Of a stretch of DNA of 64,000 nt, positions 2,107-40,782 are shown piece by piece (position 1 is the first letter of the stretch; the number at the start of each line of letters is the position of its first letter). This DNA comes from Pseudovirgaria hyperparasitica. Taxonomy: Eukaryota. The notes under the pieces are model-generated. The model made no database searches. It was given only the letters and a program-made list of their open reading frames with translations, and was not told the DNA's origin. The DNA lies in the NCBI GenBank assembly GCA_010093815.1, contig ML996584.1. The stretch is one strand, 5' to 3'. A program made the position numbers and the translations under genes.

Positions 2107-3736
2107 TCAGAAGAACTTGAAACCGCCTTGTCGAAACATGAAGCCGTTTGGATCGTACTTCTTCTGGATGCTCTTCAAGCGTGCCTCGTTCTCAGAGCCA
2201 TAGCTTGCATACACGTTCTGATAGTCTGCAGCATCGTTCATGAAGAGTGGGTTGTACCTGTTGAAAGTGTCAGCCACATGGTCGGATAAACTTCCCCAAA
2301 CTGTAAACTCACGATGCAAAATTCTTGTCCCCCGACTGAAAGTTGGTTGGCCCAGCTCCGGGGAACGTCTTCGCCTGGTATGCTACCATAGTGTCCGCGG
2401 CGTCCTTCAGATAGGTCGGACATGCGTTGTCACACAAAGGGTTCAGCCATATCACATCATTCTCAATCCAGATCCGGTCGCCATACTTGGGGTCCAGGCC
2501 AAGTGTGTTGCCACCAGCATCCTGCGACGCCTGCGCAACGACGCGGCTCAACGGCTGTGGTGTGAATGTCAACACTTGCAGATCAAGATCGCGCACTGTG
2601 TTGTTCAACGAGCGTTTTGCGTAAACCTGGAAATGTTCCTCGTAGAATGCATTCATCTGCTCCGGCGGCATGTTCGGGAAAGTCGTCACACGCGCCGCGG
2701 TACTGAAGCCCTGGACGCTAGCTCCGCCGGCCTCATCCGTCATCTCTCTGTATGTCTTCGCTTCGGTGCTTGACGATATCGAGGGGATCTTGTCGAAGTC
2801 AGCGAAGACATTGCCAGGGTCAGGCCCGTCGTAAAACATGAAGACGATCAGAACGTCGAGTACACCGAGCGTGAAGTCGTGGGTTGGGATTAATGCGGCC
2901 TTCTTGTCGGGATAGTTGGCAACAAACTTCGACAGGCTGTCGAAGATCTGTGCTCGGTTTTCGGCCGCGTACGTACGTGTGCCGCCCCAGACTTGACCGT
3001 TGACACCTGCTGGGTGCGCCTTCAGGGTGAAGCGCGTGACGATGGCGAAGCGATTGCCACCGCCCTTAAGCGCCCAGAAGAGGTCCGAGTATTCCGTGCT
3101 TTGGGCATTGATGTTGGCGATAGTGCCGTCCGGCAAGACAGCTTCGTAATTGAGCACATTGTCGCAGGCCAGCCCGTACTGGGCAGAGTAGTATGATAGA
3201 CCCCCACCAAGAGTGAATCCTCCTACACCAATATGACTGAGACGGCCGCCAACGACGACTTGATTCGTCTTACCAGCCTCTGTGTAAACATCCCCCCAGC
3301 GGGCGCCAGAGCCGACGACGAAGCTGTTGCCGTCAGAGGAGCGAACGGCGGAGGATAGATTCTCATTGAAAGAGATGAGCACGCCCTTGTCAACACTGGA
3401 AAAACCTTTGTTGAATTGATGGCCACCGGACTTGATGGCGAACGGCGCGTTCGTATACTTGTTGAGTTGCTTGACAGCATCTGACACCATCTCCGCATTC
3501 GACGGGAAGAAGGCGCATGTCGCGCGATTGTACTGGTTCCTCCTGTCCCAATAGGCAGTGTGTGCATTGGCCCACTTGGAAGCGTTCGCAGCAGTCTTGT
3601 AGCCATTGATGTTCAGGGGATCCCAGGCCACGTATCTGGGGTACTTGTCAACAAGATAGGAACAGACGGCATCGGCATCGCTGGTGGGAGCAGCCCATGC
3701 CGTCGCGGCGAGGAAGACGAGAGATGTCAGCAGCAT
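2107..3736 (-). CDS. Secreted FAD-linked oxidoreductase (berberine-bridge-enzyme/VAO-like, FAD_binding_4)
   Basis: Exons 3736-2313 and 2257-2107 (intron GTGAGT...GCTGAC...CAG). Signal peptide MLLTSLVFLAATAWA; IKSGGH FAD-attachment motif; VGGFTLGGG; DLFWALKGGG; C-terminal YG.EN..RL..I.KKYDP BBE motif. Confidence 0.9.
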
Positions 3737-5637
3737 TTTACAGCCGAGAATGTCGAAGGATCAACTCGATGACCTCCAGTTCTATTCATTAAGATTAAGA
3801 TGTTGAAGGTCTTTCTATCTATACATACTGTTTTGGCTCAGACGAGACGATGTGCCCTTCCCACAATAGGCGATCATAATATCTTGGTCCCCTAAGGCTC
3901 TCCTGGAGATATAGCCAATGGGGGCGGGCCTGCCAGCGGCCCCAGCAGGAAACCTCGGCAGCTGGCCAGGGTGGCGTCGCACATGGGAGATCTATAAAAG
4001 ACTATGGAATGCATAATGGAAGAATTGTGATGCTAAGATACCTTTCTTTTCCATTGTGGTCTCATTCCACGGAGTGGCTGTTACCGAGAGGCTAAAAGCG
4101 CCATTGAGATGTTGAGTAAATCGTCCGATCTCGTTTTCGTATGGGTTCTGGGCGCCATCCATGCCCACTTTGGGGATGATCGACGCACCCACAGGCAAAA
4201 AGGGTCCGTTTAGCCTCAGCCAAACGTGGCGAGGCTTGTTAGTAGCTTCGGCATTCACATTCCAACCCCTCTTCATCAGCGACGACGTTATCTCGTAGAT
4301 ACCTCGACGAACAAAACGGTATAGAACAAAGTGGCTCTGATCTATGACGATGGTGCTTGCTTGGCTGTCTTTCCCCGGCGTGACAACTCGCCAAAATACG
4401 AGACAACCTGCAACAAGTCCACGACATGATTATATCATCAATGCGCTCTTGTGATTCAAGGAATTATACCCTGAAAACGTGGTATAACCACAACTCGATG
4501 GTCTCAGCACTATCATGCTGAACTTACCACAGGTCTTGCACTATCAACACTATCAGCAATGCATGAAAGCATAATCCATAATGTAAGCTACGCAGCGACT
4601 CACATATGGCTTAATCTTCATTCGATTGCCGCCATGTCGTGAAGATAATAATTTAGAACAAATTGTAACGAGCAGTGCCCTTTCTCCTCATATTCGAAAT
4701 TCAGTAGCATGGTCGAACGAATCTGGCACTAGGTCTTCAAAACGGGAGACAGGATGAGTGAAATTACAAGTCATGAGCTCCAGAGCATTCTGCTCAGTGT
4801 ATGCCATATTTAGATATTACCGGGTGGACAAAGATGCGATACTGTGGAGCTAAGAAGTAGCATGTCTCTCAATGATAGAATTACTGACTGACATTGTATA
4901 TCATCTATCAGACCCTTTAGTTCGGACTCAGTTGGGTGTACTAATCGGACTGGTAGTATTCATTTTGTCCGCCGTGACATTATACGCACGCTGAAAGAGA
5001 TATTTGAAGGCAAGGCAGTTCGTGGAAGGAGTTTTGATTGGTTATTGATCATCCATAGCTGGATCTCGGAGTGATTGATGCGTGTCAGCTCGAATGTAAG
5101 CCTTCCTCTATGCGGCAACAACGCCAAGATTGAGGCTACACCATGAATCTGTTGACGGTCATTCCTGTTTTAAGCTTAGTTGGTAGGTCGAGCTGTTCCT
5201 CTTCCATACACTTATAGTTTGGTAGACATTCTGCCATGATTATGCCTTCATTGCAGCGAGAACCAACAGCATGGGTCCTCTAGTCTATTTCGAATTATCA
5301 TCTCTGTTCGTGAGAGGCTGCTGCATATTGGTCAACAGTCTTTTCACGATGCTCCTGCATCCGCGATGCTAACATAAATACGGACGCCAATCTCGCATGT
5401 CTGCTGCAGTGGTACAGTGGCGTGTACGGCCATCGATTGCGCGACCGTCAGCTTGGGTAGCAATGCATGAAGCAGCTCATAGTTGTGTCTGTCACCTCCA
5501 TATATCTTCGAGTCCCTCGACGTACATTTGACGAAACATGTATCAGCACAGTTTCAGACAAATCGACACGCTTAACAAAAGGTTCCCGTGGCTTCTTTCT
5601 ACTGGTATATCCGAGTTGTCTTATACTCTCATGAAAA

Positions 5638-8840: not shown

Positions 8841-10778
8841 ATGGCCGGTCAAGCTCTACAATTGGTACGTTGGGTCTCGGGCTCTATTTTACTATTCCAG
8901 CATCTCGCTAAAACCCTGATGATCAGGTCGCATTTGCGGGCCTTGCAGCTCGTGTGCTAGGCGCTGGGTTCCGAACCGTTGGCTCGTCAGGCTGCACGCC
9001 ACAGATGGTCTTTCTTCAGCCCTACACAGACAACGCCATCTTCATAGACAAGTAAGGACGAGCCCTCCTCCCCTTGACCTGACCTTACCTGGGGTTGCTC
9101 TGCTTTCCTCTAACCAGCCTGTGACAGTTTCCACGCCAACTATGGCGGACCTGGCGTCAACCTCCAGACCGGTGCCCATTCGACGACCGCATACGTGTAT
9201 GATGGGACCAACGTGCCAGTCTTTGGCACGTCGTATAATTGGCGGACGAATGCGCTGCGTAAGCTTCACCCCGTGACCAACACGTTTTGCTCTGCCGGTG
9301 CCTTTTTTCCGGACGGGACGTTGGTGAACCCGGCGGGAGCAGAGCCAGACGCGGCGAACGGGGTGGGCGATGGGTTCAATGCCCTCAGGTTTTTCGCTCC
9401 TGGGCCTTGCTCGACGCAGTGTACGAATGACTGGGTCGAGAACAGCCGGAAGCTGCAGGTCAGACGGTGGTATCCGACGACGGTCAACCTCGTGAATGGG
9501 GACATTGCTGTCGTTGGGGGCTCGAATGTGGGCGGGCTTGTGCTGAATGAGGCCAATATCAATGTTCCGACGTATGAACTCGTCTTGCAGAGCGGCACGC
9601 CCAAGGCGCCTGTGACACTGCCCATTCTGCAGTTCACGACTGCGGAAAACATGCAGCCCAACAAATCGTACAATCTCTATCCGATCCGTAAGTCTCTCCC
9701 CGCAGTGTCCTCCCGAGACTGTGAACCTCAGGCTAACAAGAACACTCACCAAGTCCACCTCCTCCCCAACACCCGCAACGCAAACGAAGTCTTCAGCCTG
9801 GCCGGCAACCAAGCCGTGATCTGGGACTACTCCCTCGACCGCCTCGTCAAGACCCTCCCCAACACGCCCCTCCAACCCCGCGCATTCCCCTCCTCAGCAA
9901 CCAGCGTCATACTCCCCATCACCAACAACGCCCTCTCCCCCACAATCCTCCTCTGCGGCGGCTCCAGCGCCGACATTCCAGACCCAGTAGCCCTAGACGA
10001 CTGCTACACCATATCCCCCTACGCCACAACCCCAACCTGGACCCCAACCGACCGCCTCCCAAACGGACCCCAAACAATGACCGACGCAATCCTCCTCCCA
10101 GACGGCACAACCCTCCTCATCAACGGCGCCCACCGCGGCTCCGGCGGCGGCTTCCAGGCCGACGACCCAGTCCTCGTCCCCCTAATCTACAACCACTCCG
10201 CCCCGCTCGGCTCCCGCTTCACCTCCCAGCCCGCAACCTCCATCCCACGCCTCTACCACTCCACAGCCACCCTCCTGCCCTCAGGCGAGGTCCTAGTCGC
10301 AGGCTCCAACCCAGCAGTCGGATACACCGCCGTTGGCGCCGTGCCCGGCGGCTGGCCGCTCTTCTCAAACAACGGCCACCAAGCCTTCCTGCACCAGCAG
10401 CAGCGCCAGAATTCACGCTACCCAACCGAGTACCGCGTCGAGATCTTCGCGCCGCCGTACATGAGTGCTTCGTCGCGGCCTGTGCTGACGACCGTGCCGG
10501 CGAGTATCGGGTATAACAGCGGGTTTGCGGTCGTGGCGTCGGGCACGACGGCAGCGGGGGCGGATGTGCGGTTTGTGCTTGTGCGTACGGGGTTCCATAC
10601 GCATGCTGTGGGCATGGTGCAGAATATGGTTTATTTGAGTGCGGTGAGGGGCACTGCGAGTGGGGCGTTTACGGTGACGTCGGTGCTGAATGGGAGTGTG
10701 ATGCCGCCGGGGGTGTATTTGTTGTTTGTGGTGGTGAATGGGGTGCCGAGTGAGGGGAAGTGGGTGAAGCTTGCGTAG
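8841..10778 (+). CDS. Copper radical oxidase / glyoxal oxidase-like (CAZy AA5), secreted
   Basis: Exons 8841-8864, 8927-9051, 9128-9687, 9754-10778; the last intron is 66 nt and in frame. Hydrophobic N-terminus. Catalytic set is visible: NTFCSAG (Cys), RRWYPT (Tyr), PRLYHS (Tyr/His), GFHTHA (His). C-terminal Ig-like PPGVYLLFVV..GVPSEG.WV. Confidence 0.9.
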
Positions 10779-11584: not shown

Positions 11585-12625
11585 CTAGCGACCAAAAGCA
11601 AAGTTCTGCGGCGCCTCTGAGGCCGGTCCCTCAGCAGTGACGTACGCCTTGGTCATGCCGCCATCGATCGCAAAGTCTGTTCCGTTGACAAAGCTCGCCT
11701 CATCGCTGGCAAGGAAGAGCACGCCGTATGCTTGCTCGATGGCCTCGCCAAACCGGCCTCCGGGCAGATGGACCTCGCGGCGATATCGCTTTGCCTTGTC
11801 GTCGCCCAGCCAGTCCTGCAGAAGAGGCGTATTGAGAGGTGCTGGACAGAGCGAATTGAATCTGTATCCCTCACGTGCGTGCACAATGGCTAGCTCACGT
11901 GTCATGGCCAGGACTGCGCCCTTGCTGGCGGTGTATGCTAGCTGTGGTGTCGCGCTGCCGACCAACGCGACCACGGATGCGGTGTTGATGACAGAGGCCT
12001 TCTTCTTGCCGTGCTTGCGGAAGCTCTGAACAGCTGCTTTGCAGCCATACCACACACCCTTGACGTTGATGTTGTGTGTGAGGTCCCAGATTTTCTCCGG
12101 GGTGTCGACAGCGTCGGCATCGTCGGCGTGCATGATACCAGCGTTGTTGAAAATCACGTCCAGTCCACCCCAGGCGTCAGTGTGGGCGACCATTGCTTGC
12201 ACATCAGACTCCTTTGACACGTCACAAATGATGGTGTCGATGTTTTGGTGCTCAGGGATCAATTCCTTGAGCTTGTTGGCTGCTTTTTCGAGGGCAGGGC
12301 CGGAAATATCGGCCATCAGGACATTGGCACCTTCACGAGCGAAGAGAATGGATGTCTCGAGTCCAATACCACTGAATTTGGTCAGTTGTTGATCACAACG
12401 GTGGTTATTGAGCGTCAGAATGGTAAATCGCGTGAGCATGGGAAAAGACTCGCGATAAAGATGGAGCACAGTGAAAAAACGCAGATCTGGTGCAGAGTGA
12501 ACGAAAATAATTGTGCCGTGACTCCATGGCGGCAGTTCAGGTGTTTCTAAAACTCACCCAGCAGCACCAGTGACGATGCAGTTCTTGCCAGCAAGGCGGC
12601 CCTTGGGAGGCGATACGCTACCCAT
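11585..12625 (-). CDS. Short-chain dehydrogenase/reductase
   Basis: Exons 12625-12558 and 12371-11585. Motifs: RLAGKNCIVTGAAGGIG (Rossmann), FNNAGI, INTAS, YTASK, RFNSLCPAPLNTPLL, DGGMTKAYVT. Confidence 0.93.
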
Positions 12626-13852
12626 GTTGAATGGCAGAGATTGTGATGACGGTTCCTGACTGATAGTAGAGTAATTATAAAGAAGTTTGTATCTGGGATG
12701 TAGTTAGTTCTGTTTGCGAGTTTCAGACTGTCATGTATATTTTGAGGATGCCTGTGTGACGTGTTCGGTGATGTCGCACGGCTATCTCCGGAGTAGATCG
12801 GATGCACTTACGCGATAAATAGCACAACCGGGCTAGTTTGTTTCAACACCACAGTAGTATAGGCTGATCAGGCAAAGCAGGAGATGAGACGCAAGATCAA
12901 CGCCGGCGGGAGTTAATGAAGGAAAAGAAGATATCGAAAAAGCAAGCTCACTAAGCCGGAGAGGAGTCAGCGGACCAAGCTTGGTAGCGGTTTAGGGCCC
13001 GATAATCGGATTGCAGTTAGCTGATAAGAAGGCGTCGGGCCCTAATCGCAAAGCTTCCGATGCATGTGGAGTCAAGTCTATCTGGTCGATCAACTCAAAG
13101 GTTCCGCCAGCTAACTATCCATGAGCTGCGTGGTGACATTCTCATTTCACGTGTTCGTTCCACACGTGTGTCGAGGGCAGAGATGGTGTCCTCTGCGGAA
13201 CAGTTCGTGGACTCGTGGAGTTGCAAATGCATGACCGAGCTTTCATAAACCTACATGGCCAGAGATGGATGCATCTTGGACTGGCGAGGAATGCAGAAGT
13301 CGGACGAACTGCTGGAGACACGAGGCGACGTCGAAGTTATATAGCTTCAGCCTCCTAGGTATCCATGCCTTGTATATCCCTCAAACAAGAGTCGGGTAGG
13401 AGTAAGCAATAAGCATGATTACGCCTCAGGCCTAACTTTACAAGGCTGTAAGGTGGGTAACCTTGAAGCGCCGAATGACTGTGCTGTACATACTTACCGT
13501 ACTGTATGTACTATTTTCCTGTATCGTATTAATTAGTGCACAGAAAAAACTACGTCGCTCGATTACCCCACCACGTGCGCATCAGCCACACTTACCCCGC
13601 TTTAACCCAATCGAATCCAGCTAGCTATCCATCAGCCACAGTAGCTATCTTTCCACCCTAGCTCGGTTAGTATCGCAAGGGCGAGACCTGAGAGAGACGC
13701 TTGACCGGAGCAAGGGCAGAGGTGAACGGTCGTCCACGGCAGAGGCCTGCTGAGGCTGAGGCTTGCCTCCTGTACAGCCCTTTCTGCGACACTACTTCTA
13801 CTACTAATATTCTTATCCTTGCCCTCCTCGATTTCTCAATCTATATCTCATC
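12626..13852. promoter_or_regulatory. Shared divergent promoter of the SDR/GS-like pair with candidate GATA (AreA-type) and CreA-type sites
   Basis: HGATAR matches at 12661, 12782 (rev), 12813, 13000, 13022 and 13645 (rev). SYGGRG matches on the reverse strand at 13566-13571 and 13595-13600. These are short motifs and function is unproven. Confidence 0.35.
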
Positions 13853-15422
13853 ATGGCGTCCGATACAAAAGTCTCCCTCCAGAACCTCCCTCGGATCCTC
13901 GCCGATGACGATGCAGTCAAGGTTGCCGGCATTGACGTCGACGGTCAGCTTCGTGGCAAGCTGATGGCAAAGAGCAAGTTCCTCAAGATTGCCGAAGACG
14001 GCTTTGGCTTCTGCTCCGTCATCTTTGGCTGGGATATGCACGACCGAACATACTTTCGCGAACTCGCCATTAGCAACGCAGAGAACGGCTATCGCGACCT
14101 GATCGCTGTGCCGGACTTGAACTCATTTAGAAGGATACCGTGGGAGAACAATGTTCCCTTCTTCCTCGTTACCTTTTACGATTCCGCAACCCACGAGACA
14201 CTGAGTGCTTGCCCGAGATCGTTGCTCAAACGCATGGTCGAGAAGCTTCACAAGGATGGCAAAGGAGCAATGGCAGGAGGTTAGTGGTGGAGAGTTCTGA
14301 TGAGTCTATTGTTGGGTGTAAAGCCACTGGGCTAATCAATTGCTTGACTACAGCCGAGTACGAGTTCTTTCAGTTTCGCGCGCCCGAAGGCAAATCTGCT
14401 GCGACCTTCCTGCAGGAGAATCCCGTCAACTCTCTCCCTTCTTTGACTGAGGGCATGTTCGGATACAGTATCACAAGACCCGTCGTCAATCAAGACTACT
14501 ACTATGGCATATTCGACAATTGCAAGAAGTTCAATTGTGGTATCGAGGGCTGGCATACGGAATCTGGTCCGGGTGTCTTCGAGGCGGTAAGAGAGTGACA
14601 CGAGTGCGACGACAATCTGGACGCCACTGACACGAAACAACACAGGCTCTCGAGTTCGGCGAAATCACTCAGATGGCCGACAAGGCGTCCCTCTTCAAGC
14701 TTGTGGTCAAGTCGCTCGGAACCAAGTACGGCATAACGCCTTGCTTCATGGCAAAGCCCCGAGAAGGTCTGCCTGGAAACTCCGGACACATGCATGTCTC
14801 GGTGATTGATAAGCGCAACGGAGACAATCTCTTCATACGATCCGAGCCTGATCCAAATCCTCCCTATCCCGACCTAAAACACCTTTCAGATCTAGGCCGA
14901 CACTTTCTTGCGGGTCTCCTCGAAGGCCTCCCCGACATCATGCCTCTTCTTGCACCTACTGTTAATAGCTACAAGCGTCTCGTCGAGAACTTCTGGGCCC
15001 CAGTAACAGTATCCTGGGGACTTGAGCATCGTGCCGCATCAATCCGACTGATTGCGCCACCTACAGCCTCGCCGAAAGCGACGCGCTTTGAAGTCCGTGT
15101 GCCTGGAGCAGATACAAACCCTCACTTTGTCCTGGCAGCCATACTTGCTCTCGGCTGGAGAGGTGTTGAGAAGAAGCTCGAGATAGCAGTGCCACCGTTG
15201 GGCAAGGGCGAGGACGTAGGCGGCTCCAGCGACAAAGGGCAGCGGCTGGCCAAGAGCCTCAAGGAGGCAACAGAAGTATTCAAACGGAAAGACAGCATTG
15301 CGCGGGAGGTGTTTGGCGATGAGTTTGTGGAGCACTACGCCGGGACCAGAGAGCATGAGATACGGCTCTGGGACGAAGCAGTGACAGACTGGGAGGTCAG
15401 GAGGTATATCGAGACTGTGTGA
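13853..15422 (+). CDS. Glutamine synthetase-like (GSI-type) gamma-glutamyl-amine ligase
   Basis: Exons 13853-14279, 14354-14586, 14646-15422. Motifs: D.DG.LRGK, EYEFF, HTESGPGVFE, GNSGHMHVS, NSYKRL, WG.EHR.ASIR, RFEVRVPGAD.NP. There is no N-terminal amidohydrolase domain, so it is not full-length FluG, and it is not the eukaryotic GSII type. Confidence 0.9.
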
Positions 15423-16342
15423 GGGAGCCAGTTAGGTTGACCTGGTGGCGAGCATGTCGACGCAAGGTTGGACGAAGCGAAGAGTGGCGCAAAACAGTAG
15501 AGAGGATGTGTTACACCATCGTCGATGCGTCTCATCTCCTATCGTTTCCTATCGTCATCTGTGTGCCATGTGTCGGCGTAAACTTGGAAGGGGGGAGAAA
15601 CAAGCATGTGGCGCAACAGTCTCGCTAACCGTATGCGGACAAGCGAGATTGGCTGGTGGCCGGGCAAACGTGCGTTAGTCCCCGCTAAAGTGCAAGGAAC
15701 TCCCCTAGCATTTTTAGCAAAATGACGTCATTGTCCTGTGTCGCTAACCTTTCGAGGGCGGTGAAAGCAAGTTTACTGGTTTACTGCACCGCATCGTTGA
15801 TCTCGCATTGATATTGATGTTATGCTTTCGGACGTGGGCGATGCAATATCTGAAAGGGACGTGTGTATGTCTCGCGTCGAGGTCCCGAGTCACTGCACCT
15901 GTCTCTATTGAAAGAGTGCGATGACGTAGATGAGGCGTCATTTGAAGATATTCGCAGAGGCAGGTGCTACTGCACAGGAAGAGCATTCACATACCGGTTT
16001 GTCCATCTTCCTGTAACATTCACTGCTAGCGCCCCGTCTAGTCCTGTGTCACACGCGCTCTTCCGTCCTTCAAGTTAGGCAGGCACTGCGCGCTCGGACC
16101 CGCCTCAGCTTTTCCTCTTCCGTTTGTTTATAACCTGCCCGATTTCTCTGTTCCTCAAATCACTTAACTCTCTCCAAATCCGCATTCCACACTTTTTTCT
16201 ACTTCTTCTTGCATCTTCAGCAAAATCCCATTACAACGATTCGCTCGTCGTTAAGACTACAGACTACACCTCAACTACTACTACTACCACTACTACTACT
16301 CTCTAAACACACTTAAACAACCTCCTCTCAAACTCAGTCATC

Positions 16343-16618
16343 ATGGGTGCCGTCGTTTCTTGCGTATGTTCCTCTTCTTCCTGATTCTAGATACCAGATC
16401 TGAGCTGGATTGCCACTGTTCCTTCTTACTAACTCCCATCACAGATCAAGTCGGTCTTCCAGTCCATCGGCTCCTGCCTGATGGCCATTGTCCACGCCAT
16501 CGGCTCCATCTTCATGGCAATCATCAACGGCATCGTCTCGCTCTTTGACATCATCATCGGCTGCCTGACCTGTCGCCGCGGTGGAGGTAGACGCCGCAAG
16601 ACCACCAGCCACGTCTGA
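16343..16618 (+). CDS. Small 64-aa hydrophobic protein with N-myristoylation motif
   Basis: Exons 16343-16363 and 16445-16618 (GTATGT...ACTAAC...CAG) give MGAVVSCIKSVFQSIGSCLMAIVHAIGSIFMAIINGIVSLFDIIIGCLTCRRGGGRRRKTTSHV*. Strong C-ending codon bias, TCATCATGG start context, TTATAA and a pyrimidine-rich leader upstream. Confidence 0.82.
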
Positions 16619-33279: not shown

Positions 33280-35405
33280 ATGGACGTACTCACCGCACTC
33301 GCGTCCCGTGTCAACGACACCGACGTCTCGACGCTTCTACACCTCGCCGCGCCGGCGCTAGTCACGGGCTTCGCGCTACTCGTTGTCGTCGTGGTGGTGC
33401 GTCGATGGTCGCAGGCCGCAGCTGAGGCGGGAGTGCGGTACAGCGTGCCGGTGCCGGAGCAGGCGAGGGAAGGGTGGAAAGGGGACGTGCTAGAGAAGCC
33501 TGGGATCAAGGTATGTATGTTTCTGTCTGTCCTCTTGTTGTGCGGGTGGGATGATGTATAATTAAGATGTGGTGAGGGCGGATAAAGGGGGTGAAAAGGG
33601 GCGCTCACGTGATTGGCAGGTTGAAGGCAGCGAGGCCATACAGTGTTATTGTCCTGCGAATGGGCGGTTGCTGGGACGGATCGAGCCTGATACGCGGGCG
33701 GATATCGATAGGGCGGTGGAGAGGGCGGAGGCGGCGCAGAGGGAGTGGAGGACGACGACGTTTGCGCAGCGGAGGCGGGTGTTGAGGAGTATGCTGAGGT
33801 ATGGTGGAGGAAGTCATGATCTTCAGAGGTGGAGGATTTTAGACAGGTGCTGACGTGTTATGAACAGGTTTCTGCTGGATAATCAGGATACGCTGGCCAC
33901 AGTTGCGTGCCTTGATTCTGGGAAGACCCGGATCGACGCGCTGTTTGGGGAGATTCTCGTTACGGCGGAGAAGCTCAAGTGGGTGATTGATCATGGCGAG
34001 AGGGCGCTCAGGCCGGAGCGTCGACCGACGAACTTCCTCATGTTTTACAAGAAGAACGAGGTCCGATGGGAGCCGTTGGGTGTTGTGGCTGCTTGTGTCA
34101 GCTGGAAGTGAGTCTCTTCTCTACACTTGTCATGCTCTTCTGAATGTTAATGTACGACGCCAGCTATCCCGTGAGCAACCTCACTCCGCCACTCTACTAC
34201 CCCTATTCCACCCACTGACTCTACCCCAGTTCCACAACCTCATCAGTCCCGTCATATCGTCACTCTTCGCTGGCAATGCCATTGTCGTCAAGGGCTCCGA
34301 GCAGACCGCCTGGTCCTCTGCCTACTTCGCCTCCGTTGCAAAACACGCCCTGATCGCCTGCGGTCATTCCCCCGAGCTCGTCCAGTCCGTCACCTGCTGG
34401 CCCGACGTCGCACCACACCTCACCTCCCACCCAGGCATCGCACACATCACCTTCATCGGCTCCCGACCCGTCGCCTTCCACGTCGCCGCCTCCGCCGCAT
34501 CAGCCCTCATCCCCACCGTCATCGAGCTCGGCGGCAAAGACCCTGCCATCGTCCTCGACGACGCCGCCCCAGACCTCTCCCGCATCATCCCCATCCTCAT
34601 GCGCGGCACCTTCCAATCCGCAGGCCAAAACTGCATCGGCATCGAACGCATCATCGCCCAGCCCGCCATCCACGACAAAATCCTCTCCGCCGTCCTCCCG
34701 CTCATCAAATCCCTCAACCAAGGCTCCGCCCTCGACAACCCGCCCTCCGCCCCCGCAATCGACCTCGGCGCCTCCATCTCCCCATCCTCCTTCCCAGCCC
34801 TCCAAGCCCTCATCGCCGAAGCCATCGCCGACGGCGCAACCCTCCACACCGGCGGCAACCCCTACTCCCACCCATCCCACCCAAAAGGCCACTACTTCGC
34901 CCCAACCCTACTCTCAAACGTCACTCCCTCCATGCGCATCGCCCGCACCGAACTCTTCGCCCCAGTAATGCTCCTCCTCCGCGCCCCGACCCCCGCCGCC
35001 GCCCTCGCCGCCGCAAACGCAACCCCCTACGCCCTCGGCGCCAGCATCTTCGGCCGCTGCCCCCGCGTCCTCGCCGACTTGACCGACGGTATATCCGCCG
35101 GCATGGTCAGCGTCAACGACTTCGCCGCCTACTACGCCGTGCAGCTGCCCTTTGGCGGCGTGCGCGGCAGTGGCTACGGCCGTTTCGCCGGTGCGGAGGG
35201 CCTGCGCGGCGTGTGTAATGTTAAGAGTGTTTGTGTTGATCGTTGGCCGTCGGTGCTGCGGACGGCGATTCCGTCGGTGCTGGGCATGCCGGGAGGTGCG
35301 GGTGCGGCGCGCATGTGGGAGTTTGGCAAGGGGGTTGTGGAGGTTGGGTATGGGGAGAGCTTGGGGCGGAGGGTGAGGGGTGTGAGGCGGTTTTTGGGCG
35401 TTTGA
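33280..35405 (+). CDS. MSC7: Membrane-anchored aldehyde dehydrogenase, MSC7-like
   Basis: Exons 33280-33510, 33620-33798, 33868-34107, 34164-34170 (7 nt), 34230-35405. N-terminal TM helix; IQCYCPA.G; VSWNYPFHN; FIGS; ELGGKD; FQSAGQNCIGIER (catalytic Cys); ELFAPV; PFGG..GSGYGRF.G.EGLR. Confidence 0.88.

Positions 35406-35908: not shown

Positions 35909-40782
<4,874 letters not shown>

Follow-up and report, generated by a model that had tools for sequence, protein, structure and literature searches.

Why should a fungus keep a glutamine synthetase-like ligase and a short-chain dehydrogenase/reductase (SDR) head to head, and what might the two enzymes do together? The question is raised by positions 11585-15422 of a 64,000-nucleotide stretch of contig ML996584.1 from Pseudovirgaria hyperparasitica (assembly GCA_010093815.1), hereafter the window. 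There, from stop codon to stop codon, an SDR gene on the minus strand diverges from a ligase gene on the plus strand whose product resembles type I glutamine synthetase (GSI-like; GS, glutamine synthetase). A first-pass annotation had read the pair as the fungal two-gene core of a pathway that glutamylates an amine and then oxidises the product, as known from bacteria. Having compared both proteins with their fungal and bacterial relatives, we consider it probable that the pair is a conserved, co-located unit that degrades or detoxifies an amino alcohol, for which ethanolamine is the favoured candidate. We know of no established fungal route of ethanolamine breakdown, and the bacterial route through a B12-dependent lyase is, to our knowledge, not an option for fungi.

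Both gene models are letter-for-letter equal to proteins deposited for this species, P0121 for the SDR and P0001 for the ligase, which the database names 'oxidoreductase' and 'glutamine synthetase/guanido kinase', respectively. The former is a classical SDR of 284 amino acids with one intron in its coding sequence (CDS) and a Pfam match to adh_short_C2 (2.3e-54); the latter, of 478 amino acids, is encoded by a gene with two introns and has Gln-synt_C (PF00120, 3.7e-82) as the sole Pfam domain detected. All motifs quoted in the first-pass annotation are present, namely GFCSVIFGWD, HTESGPGVFE and WGLEHR in the ligase and GSATPQLAYTASKGAVLAMTRELAIVHAREG, RREVHLPGGRF and DGGMTKAYVT in the SDR. Pfam finds no amidohydrolase domain in the 478-residue ligase, which therefore does not have the FluG architecture, as that annotation had also held.

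Transcript evidence consists of contigs from two public runs of unrecorded kind, representing one sample of one study; contig ends give approximate transcript limits, expression levels and true ends being beyond such data. Contigs of both runs lack all three CDS introns, with joints exactly at the predicted borders. They are thus spliced transcripts and show expression of both genes in that sample, which bears out the statement that the pair is now intron-containing. The two start codons lie 1227 bp apart, in agreement with a head-to-head arrangement at about 1.2 kb. This spacing had been described as one shared promoter, which the contigs do not support over its whole length: an SDR contig extends to at least 13316 and skips an additional leader intron of 119 nt, ligase contigs start at 13755 or 13824, and about 440 bp are left untranscribed (Table 1).

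Both proteins are highly conserved in Pezizomycotina. With the last ligase exon as query, full-length proteins of 455-539 amino acids and 78-87% identity were found in Dothideomycetes, Eurotiomycetes, Sordariomycetes, Leotiomycetes and Lecanoromycetes, and the SDR is 77-88% identical across the same five classes. Beyond Pezizomycotina, no named species appears among the 120 SDR matches listed. A search of 50%-identity representatives, complemented by name look-ups, gave a wider range for the ligase: Glomeromycota (Funneliformis, 58% identity), chytrids (Podochytrium, 51%; Phlyctochytrium, 47%; Homolaphlyctis, 39%), Ramicandelaber, Basidiobolus and two yeasts (Wickerhamiella, 51%; Trichomonascus, 45%).

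The two genes also stay together. Their locus tags are adjacent in Paraphaeosphaeria sporulosa (DPSP01_003508 and 003507), P. minitans (PMIN06_001797 and 001798), Madurella fahalii (MFIFM68171_02705 and 02706) and Emmonsiellopsis sp. (FQN50_006438 and 006437); position-like tags place them about 2 kb apart in Pseudopithomyces chartarum, and in Aplosporella they share one 11-kb contig. Pairing was furthermore assessed on DNA, using 80 environmental contigs that encode ligases 65-80% identical to ours and a threshold of at least 60% identity for the SDR. The SDR gene lies upstream of the ligase gene in 42 of these loci, head-to-head in 36 and on the same strand in 6. It is present in 33 of the 39 loci that are informative, that is with at least 2.5 kb of upstream sequence; the remaining 41 are too short upstream to be scored as misses, and nine of them still show the SDR. 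These counts, together with the adjacent tags in five named species, demonstrate that the linkage is conserved in fungi.

What the SDR might do is suggested by its motifs and, more strongly, by its bacterial relatives. The protein carries TGAAGGIG, FNNAG and YTASK, and the second strand is followed by an Asp (...LMADI), which by general SDR rules favours NAD and so would fit an oxidative role. The best structure match is 4wec (7.1e-56), presumably from Mycobacterium smegmatis, with the next at 1.1e-36, and the ESM Atlas returned bacterial SDR clusters only. The kin set was defined as the 80 best bacterial and archaeal genome loci, whose SDRs are 53-58% identical to the fungal one and belong to Bacteroidota, Acidobacteriota, Chloroflexota, Planctomycetota, Verrucomicrobiota, Actinomycetota and Pseudomonadota. 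A GS-like gene is found in 63 of the 80, upstream on the same strand in 59 (within 150 bp in 38), divergent in one (L023), in a single frame in one (L062) and partial in two. At least three of the 17 other loci are too short upstream to judge, and those of Runella and Verrucomicrobia truly lack the gene.

Ten sampled loci, annotated with Pfam and NCBIfam, show the operon order: amino-acid-type permease, GS-like ligase, SDR, aldehyde dehydrogenase (ALDH), and class-I amidotransferase or peptidase C26. Across the 63 GS-linked loci, many of them cut by contig ends, 40 have an operon-type ALDH, 45 encode an amidotransferase or C26 hydrolase and eight have a close relative of ethanolamine permeases; with TIGR00908 'ethanolamine permease', whose cut-off is 381.75 bits, the permease of L024 reaches 582.8 bits. 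When the SDR tree is rooted on three paralogues, the fungal sequences form a clade (support 100) inside a group (support 96) of GS-linked SDRs from Actinomycetota, Acidobacteriota and a Burkholderiales metagenome-assembled genome (MAG). One mis-extracted row, OUT_L084 (branch 10), falls inside the fungal clade and was ignored. The grouping with bacterial SDRs linked to GS-like genes, which the first-pass annotation had proposed, is thereby recovered.

Some of these bacterial loci have features of their own. The single frame of L062 (8906-10774, Acidobacteriota MAG) joins the C-terminal part of the GS-like gene to the SDR, through either a natural fusion of ligase and dehydrogenase or a frameshift in the assembly. 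In a Saprospiraceae MAG (L006, 10861-13553), three tandem TIR-domain genes stand between the SDR and ALDH of an ethanolamine-type operon. The Verrucomicrobia locus L008 (4431-10759; also L001 and L026), with its SDR orthologue and no GS-like gene, is a cassette of DUF5690, class-III aminotransferase, ALDH, HAD hydrolase, class-I amidotransferase and SDR.

Could the ligase simply be a spare true glutamine synthetase, and the SDR a general reductase that happens to lie beside it? Database labels of the homologues invite this view ('glutamine synthetase', 'glucose 1-dehydrogenase', 'levodione reductase'), as does the top NCBIfam match of the ligase, TIGR00653 GlnA, yet at 222 bits against a cut-off of 429. 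The active site argues otherwise. Aligned to E. coli GlnA numbering, the fungal ligase keeps the metal ligands E129, E131, E212, E220, H269 and E357 and the glutamate/ATP-binding residues R321, R339, R344, R359 and H271, but the flap position E327 is Trp (NFWAPV), the Y179 loop is deleted, and the D50 position, where the alignment is less certain, is Arg or Lys. Judged by the Trp at E327 and the absent Y179 loop in an enzyme with its ligands intact, the ligase is not a true glutamine synthetase, and the loss of these residues of ammonium chemistry argues against an enzyme that uses only ammonium. The flap Trp is shared by all five SDR-linked ligases compared and by two of three from the ligase clade linked to an iron-type alcohol dehydrogenase (Fe-ADH) and described below, the third, a Collimonas relative (P0270), having Leu; PuuA of E. 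coli has Tyr. E327 and D50 are likewise missing from GlnA4 and PauA7 (PMC6529630) and from FluG (PMC6478659), and GlnA4 makes gamma-glutamylethanolamide in vitro, a product detected at m/z 189 (PMC6529630). Taken with the pairing of the same two families in fungal and in bacterial loci and with the nesting of the SDR in a GS-linked clade, this makes a chance neighbourhood, already disfavoured, very improbable.

The ligase led to another group of bacterial relatives. SDR-linked bacterial ligases are about 31% identical to the fungal ligase and are its top match in all five operon-bearing genomes examined. Closer kin came from 201 genomes in the order of genome G007, 26 of which hold a relative of the representative P0270 at E <= 1e-90; 14 of these 26 regions were analysed. 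Their ligases, 37-46% identical to the fungal one, are the closest bacterial sequences found. Thirteen of the regions encode an Fe-ADH, 12 an ALDH, 10 a hydrolase candidate (C26 in five, amidotransferase in one, M81 peptidase in four) and three a permease; the permease of L108 reaches 618 bits on TIGR00908, and that of L098, at 376 bits, falls just below the cut-off. With 61-62% identity, the ALDH of one Fe-ADH-type region (L103) matches those of three Bacteroidota SDR-type loci, and the amidotransferase of this region is 47% identical to that of the SDR-type locus L019. Because ALDH and amidotransferase are orthologous in some members of both types, the two represent two bacterial versions of one pathway, which by gene content and trees differ in the clade of the ligase and in the kind of alcohol dehydrogenase.

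Ligase trees were computed with FastTree (121 rows) and with IQ-TREE in quick mode (LG+G4, 52 rows). In both, the fungal rows group with the Fe-ADH-linked rows (support 99), apart from the SDR-linked clade (support 99), and E. coli PuuA lies outside all three groups. The fungal ligases form one clade (support 98), whose branching order roughly tracks fungal phylogeny from chytrids upward. On these trees the fungal pair joins the ligase lineage of the Fe-ADH version with the dehydrogenase of the SDR version. The closest Protein Data Bank (PDB) structures for the fungal ligase are 11zs (4.1e-49) and 5dm3 (3.1e-47), the latter taken by us to be from Chromohalobacter, with true GS at 5e-38 or weaker; both structures are near-orthologues of the SDR-linked ligase of Dyadobacter (2.7e-141 and 3.9e-117) and give intermediate values with an Fe-ADH-linked ligase (4.8e-81 and 1e-76). 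The GlnA proteins of Streptomyces and Mycobacterium were placed through operon make-up and these two PDB relatives; the codes that PMC13740247 gives for MtbGS2-4 are 9WRK, 9WRL and 9WRM, and 11zs is not among them.

The ligase searches also turned up unusual proteins. A 4424-residue protein of a Candidatus Auribacterota MAG (P0243/P0412) matches the ligase in six separate stretches and is thus a giant with repeated GS-like domains; P0280 is a similar giant of 2757 residues with three matching stretches. One genome from the order of G007 has an Amidohydro_1 gene immediately after a GS-like gene (L101, 7708-10528), a split form of the FluG fusion, although the amidohydrolase family may differ.

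How might such a pair be controlled? GATAAG, which fungal GATA factors such as AreA and NIT2 recognise as their core site, was counted in 37 head-to-head upstream regions, those of our window and of 36 environmental loci. They contain 84 sites against 22 +/- 4.5 in shuffled sequences (maximum 34 in 200 shuffles), and the density is 1.83 per kb upstream versus 0.38 per kb elsewhere in the same records, roughly a 5-fold excess. GATAAG ranks first among 60 hexamers of equal composition and is found in 35 of the 37 regions. This excess fits nitrogen-catabolic control, with GATA-type nitrogen regulators as the probable activators of the pair. The promoter gap of our window holds one HGATAR site, at 13645, and no CGG..CCG site of the Zn2Cys6 type.

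The predicted nitrogen control bears on a further possibility, that the pair makes a gamma-glutamylated small molecule for signalling or protection, as proposed for FluG or for the plant GSI-like theanine synthase. An identity of about 80% in both proteins across Pezizomycotina would suit such a conserved cellular role, as would the housekeeping genes nearby (AROM, hexokinase, an RNase P subunit), and for FluG a gamma-glutamylated metabolite, itself unidentified, has been proposed as the agent through which the GSI-like half works (PMC6478659). The bacterial contexts that were examined for either partner are nonetheless all catabolic, with permease, ALDH and hydrolase; the ligase lacks the amidohydrolase domain, and the GATAAG excess fits nitrogen-catabolic control. 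We regard a biosynthetic role as quite improbable.

For the catabolic unit that we favour, we infer the following steps. The GSI-like ligase would use ATP to join the gamma-carboxyl of glutamate to the amine, giving gamma-glutamylethanolamide, and the NAD-type SDR would then oxidise the free hydroxyl to the aldehyde, gamma-glutamyl-aminoacetaldehyde. An unlinked ALDH and a gamma-glutamyl hydrolase would complete the route through gamma-glutamylglycine to glycine and glutamate, and the pair would probably be induced through GATA-type nitrogen regulators. Fungi possess general gamma-glutamyl-cleaving enzymes, a possible reason for the lack of a dedicated hydrolase beside the pair. Two observations favour ethanolamine: both types of bacterial kin travel with an ethanolamine permease, and GlnA4 forms gamma-glutamylethanolamide. 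In Phaeobacter, phosphatidylethanolamine raises the levels of the equivalent proteins (PMC10132767). With an SDR from a GS-linked clade, a conserved pairing and a ligase that has lost its ammonium residues, the glutamylate-then-oxidise core is supported as a prediction. None of the three outcomes that the first-pass annotation had named as refuting was observed, and the checks on SDR grouping and on linkage were clearly positive.

The same logic could serve another substrate, such as 1-amino-2-propanol, 3-aminopropanol, serinol, a long-chain base or a hydroxylated amine from host or substrate. Sequence cannot reveal the substrate; the fungal ligase is a clade of its own, only 31-46% identical to any bacterial relative, and none of the 80 fungal loci has a linked ethanolamine permease. 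SDRs, moreover, often act on secondary alcohols. The GS-like enzymes of M. tuberculosis accept several amines in vitro (PMC13740247). Set against this, both bacterial operon types include members with a permease at the level of TIGR00908, and the ALDH that follows the dehydrogenase in the operons implies a primary alcohol. A substrate other than ethanolamine seems unlikely to us, though less so than a biosynthetic function.

Several observations weigh against the reading of the pair as an ethanolamine-type catabolic unit, and we consider them together. Adjacency is not universal: the SDR is missing beside the ligase in 6 of the 39 informative fungal loci, and in Dothideomycetidae sp. 11243 the two genes are apart (ANO11243_004680 and 007880). 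No orthologue of the operon hydrolase or permease was detected in the 80 fungal loci, and a generic ALDH in only four; in the window, orthologues of the operon ALDH, hydrolase and permease are all absent, in keeping with the earlier expectation that ALDH and hydrolase are encoded elsewhere. An identity of about 80% across fungal classes is above what is usual for a peripheral catabolic gene and hints at a more central role. The best NCBIfam model for the SDR is NF004713 (PRK06057), on which it scores 262 bits, below the cut-off of 404; a genuine operon SDR (L019) also stays below it with 317 bits, so the cut-off is narrower than the operon SDR family. As to regulation, our own window contributes only two GATAAG sites, both inside transcribed leaders, the excess comes from related regions, and GATAAG is also a target of other GATA factors.

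A further point concerns ancestry. None of the 14 Fe-ADH-type regions contains an orthologue of the SDR, three of them holding SDRs only 30% identical. Forcing fungal and SDR-linked ligases together, in a group named after the tree had been inspected and with the mis-extracted row L107 (branch 5.05 in the 52-row tree) excluded, costs 317 log-likelihood units (p-AU 0.002). The kin of ligase and SDR thus come from different operon types, and the fungal pair is a combination not found in the bacterial loci examined. The ligase is a member of the GSI-like, non-GS family and not an orthologue of GlnA4; it belongs to the neighbouring Fe-ADH clade. As to the ancient bacterial origin that the first-pass annotation had suggested, the SDR is the partner that by its tree looks bacterial in origin, and the ligase follows fungal phylogeny from chytrids upward.

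A more elaborate scenario can be drawn from these results, to which we give somewhat less than even credence. Filamentous ascomycetes would carry out a B12-independent gamma-glutamylation of ethanolamine or other amino alcohols, with a core assembled within fungi: an ancient ligase of vertical descent, found from the chytrids on and akin to that of Fe-ADH operons, would have been joined head to head by an SDR from a GlnA4-type operon and then brought under GATA control. If so, it would be the first eukaryotic pathway of this kind for amine catabolism.

Table 1. Gene parts and intervening regions of the divergent SDR-ligase pair, in window coordinates.
Feature	Position	Strand	Evidence
SDR CDS exon 2, stop codon included; NNAG, catalytic Ser, YTASK	11585..12371	-	transcript joint 12371/12558 supports border
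SDR CDS intron, 186 nt, GT..AG; interrupts TGAAG/GIG cofactor motif	12372..12557	-	spliced contigs
SDR CDS exon 1; ATG at 12625..12623	12558..12625	-	reading frame
SDR 5' leader, at least 572 nt spliced; 119-nt leader intron 12693..12811; 8 upstream ATGs	12626..13316	-	contigs
Untranscribed gap, likely bidirectional promoter core; limits approximate	13317..13754	.	without contig cover
Ligase 5' leader, about 30-98 nt, without upstream ATG	13755..13852	+	contigs
Ligase CDS exon 1; N-terminal beta-grasp region, GFCSVIFGWD	13853..14279	+	spliced contigs
Ligase intron 1, 74 nt	14280..14353	+	spliced contigs
Ligase CDS exon 2; metal ligands E-x-E, HTESGPGVFE	14354..14586	+	alignment, contigs
Ligase intron 2, 59 nt	14587..14645	+	spliced contigs
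Ligase CDS exon 3, stop included; most of Gln-synt_C, flap NFWAPV (Trp for E327)	14646..15422	+	Pfam, alignment, contigs

The two leaders contrast sharply, the long and ATG-rich one of the SDR (Table 1) facing one of less than 100 nt without any upstream ATG in the ligase gene; the former may mean translational control of the SDR. At the other end, the ligase contigs (3136 and 3160 nt) continue for about 1.4 kb beyond 15600 although the CDS stops at 15422, which reflects either a long 3' untranslated region or a merger with a neighbouring transcript; the open reading frames at 15744-16545 contain no Pfam domain.

The neighbours in the window are of housekeeping character: a glyoxal oxidase (9114-10775), an FAD oxidase (2312-3760), a C2H2 factor, a hexokinase, an RNase P subunit and SET-domain genes, with no sign in the window of a secondary-metabolite cluster. 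The only ALDH in the window (33987-35402) was considered as a pathway member and rejected, being 28-29% identical to the operon ALDHs and 18 kb away. The pentafunctional AROM gene (35980-40782, minus strand) is intact as a single frame of 1601 amino acids that comprises DHQ synthase, EPSP synthase, shikimate kinase, dehydroquinase and shikimate dehydrogenase.

For genes of unknown role, the two members of the pair are comparatively well conserved in Pezizomycotina, and their database labels are misleading; the prediction made here would correct the annotation of thousands of fungal genes. Furthermore, the mixed ancestry would be a small but clear case in which a eukaryote has put together a metabolic gene pair from two versions of the same bacterial pathway. 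The gamma-glutamylethanolamide literature that we found is bacterial or archaeal only, and judging by titles and the beginnings of abstracts we found no publication on such a fungal pathway. Of the three 'GLN' genes in Magnaporthe oryzae, MoGLN1 and MoGLN3 (MGG_02538) are possible counterparts of the present ligase; their deletion mutants grew, sporulated and infected normally (PMC8229676).

Four known systems put the pair into perspective. FluG of Aspergillus nidulans is, like our ligase, a fungal GSI-like gamma-glutamyl ligase that is not a glutamine synthetase (PMC6478659); compared by architecture, it differs in its N-terminal amidohydrolase domain. The Puu pathway of E. coli (PuuA, PuuB, PuuC, PuuD), whose first enzyme is annotated as glutamate-putrescine ligase, the role that the first-pass annotation had given it, is similar in that a GSI-like ligase gamma-glutamylates an amine at the expense of ATP before oxidation and hydrolysis follow. 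There, however, a flavin oxidase acts on the amine, where the fungal pair would employ a dehydrogenase on a hydroxyl, and PuuA differs at the E327 position. Proteobacterial operons with an Fe-ADH contain the closest ligases found, most of them with the same 'xWAP' flap outside the Collimonas relative, and use an iron-type alcohol dehydrogenase where the fungi have an SDR. Another proteobacterial operon for the gamma-glutamylation of ethanolamine, that of Phaeobacter MED193, reads ETAGA-GAADDH-GETADH-GGAH (PMC10132767).

The fourth system is the glnA4 cluster of Streptomyces coelicolor (SCO1610-SCO1615), in which glnA4 encodes gamma-glutamylethanolamide synthetase, SCO1611 a short-chain dehydrogenase, SCO1612 an ALDH and SCO1615 an amidotransferase (PMC6529630), the very neighbourhood that the first-pass annotation had named; a regulator and a transporter are also included (PMC6529630, Fig. 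2). The route proposed there leads from gamma-glutamylethanolamide through gamma-glutamylacetaldehyde and gamma-glutamylglycine to glycine and glutamate (PMC6529630). The fungal locus is unlike this cluster in that its ligase falls outside the SDR-linked clade, its linkage is limited to two genes, and these genes have introns and a divergent promoter. The two agree in that a GS-like ligase without E327 and D50 stands beside an SDR, and the fungal SDR nests among the SDRs of such operons; the chemistry proposed for both runs from glutamylation through oxidation of the alcohol and then of the aldehyde to hydrolysis. The chemistry is known from bacteria, and the fungal pair is predicted to be its eukaryotic instance.

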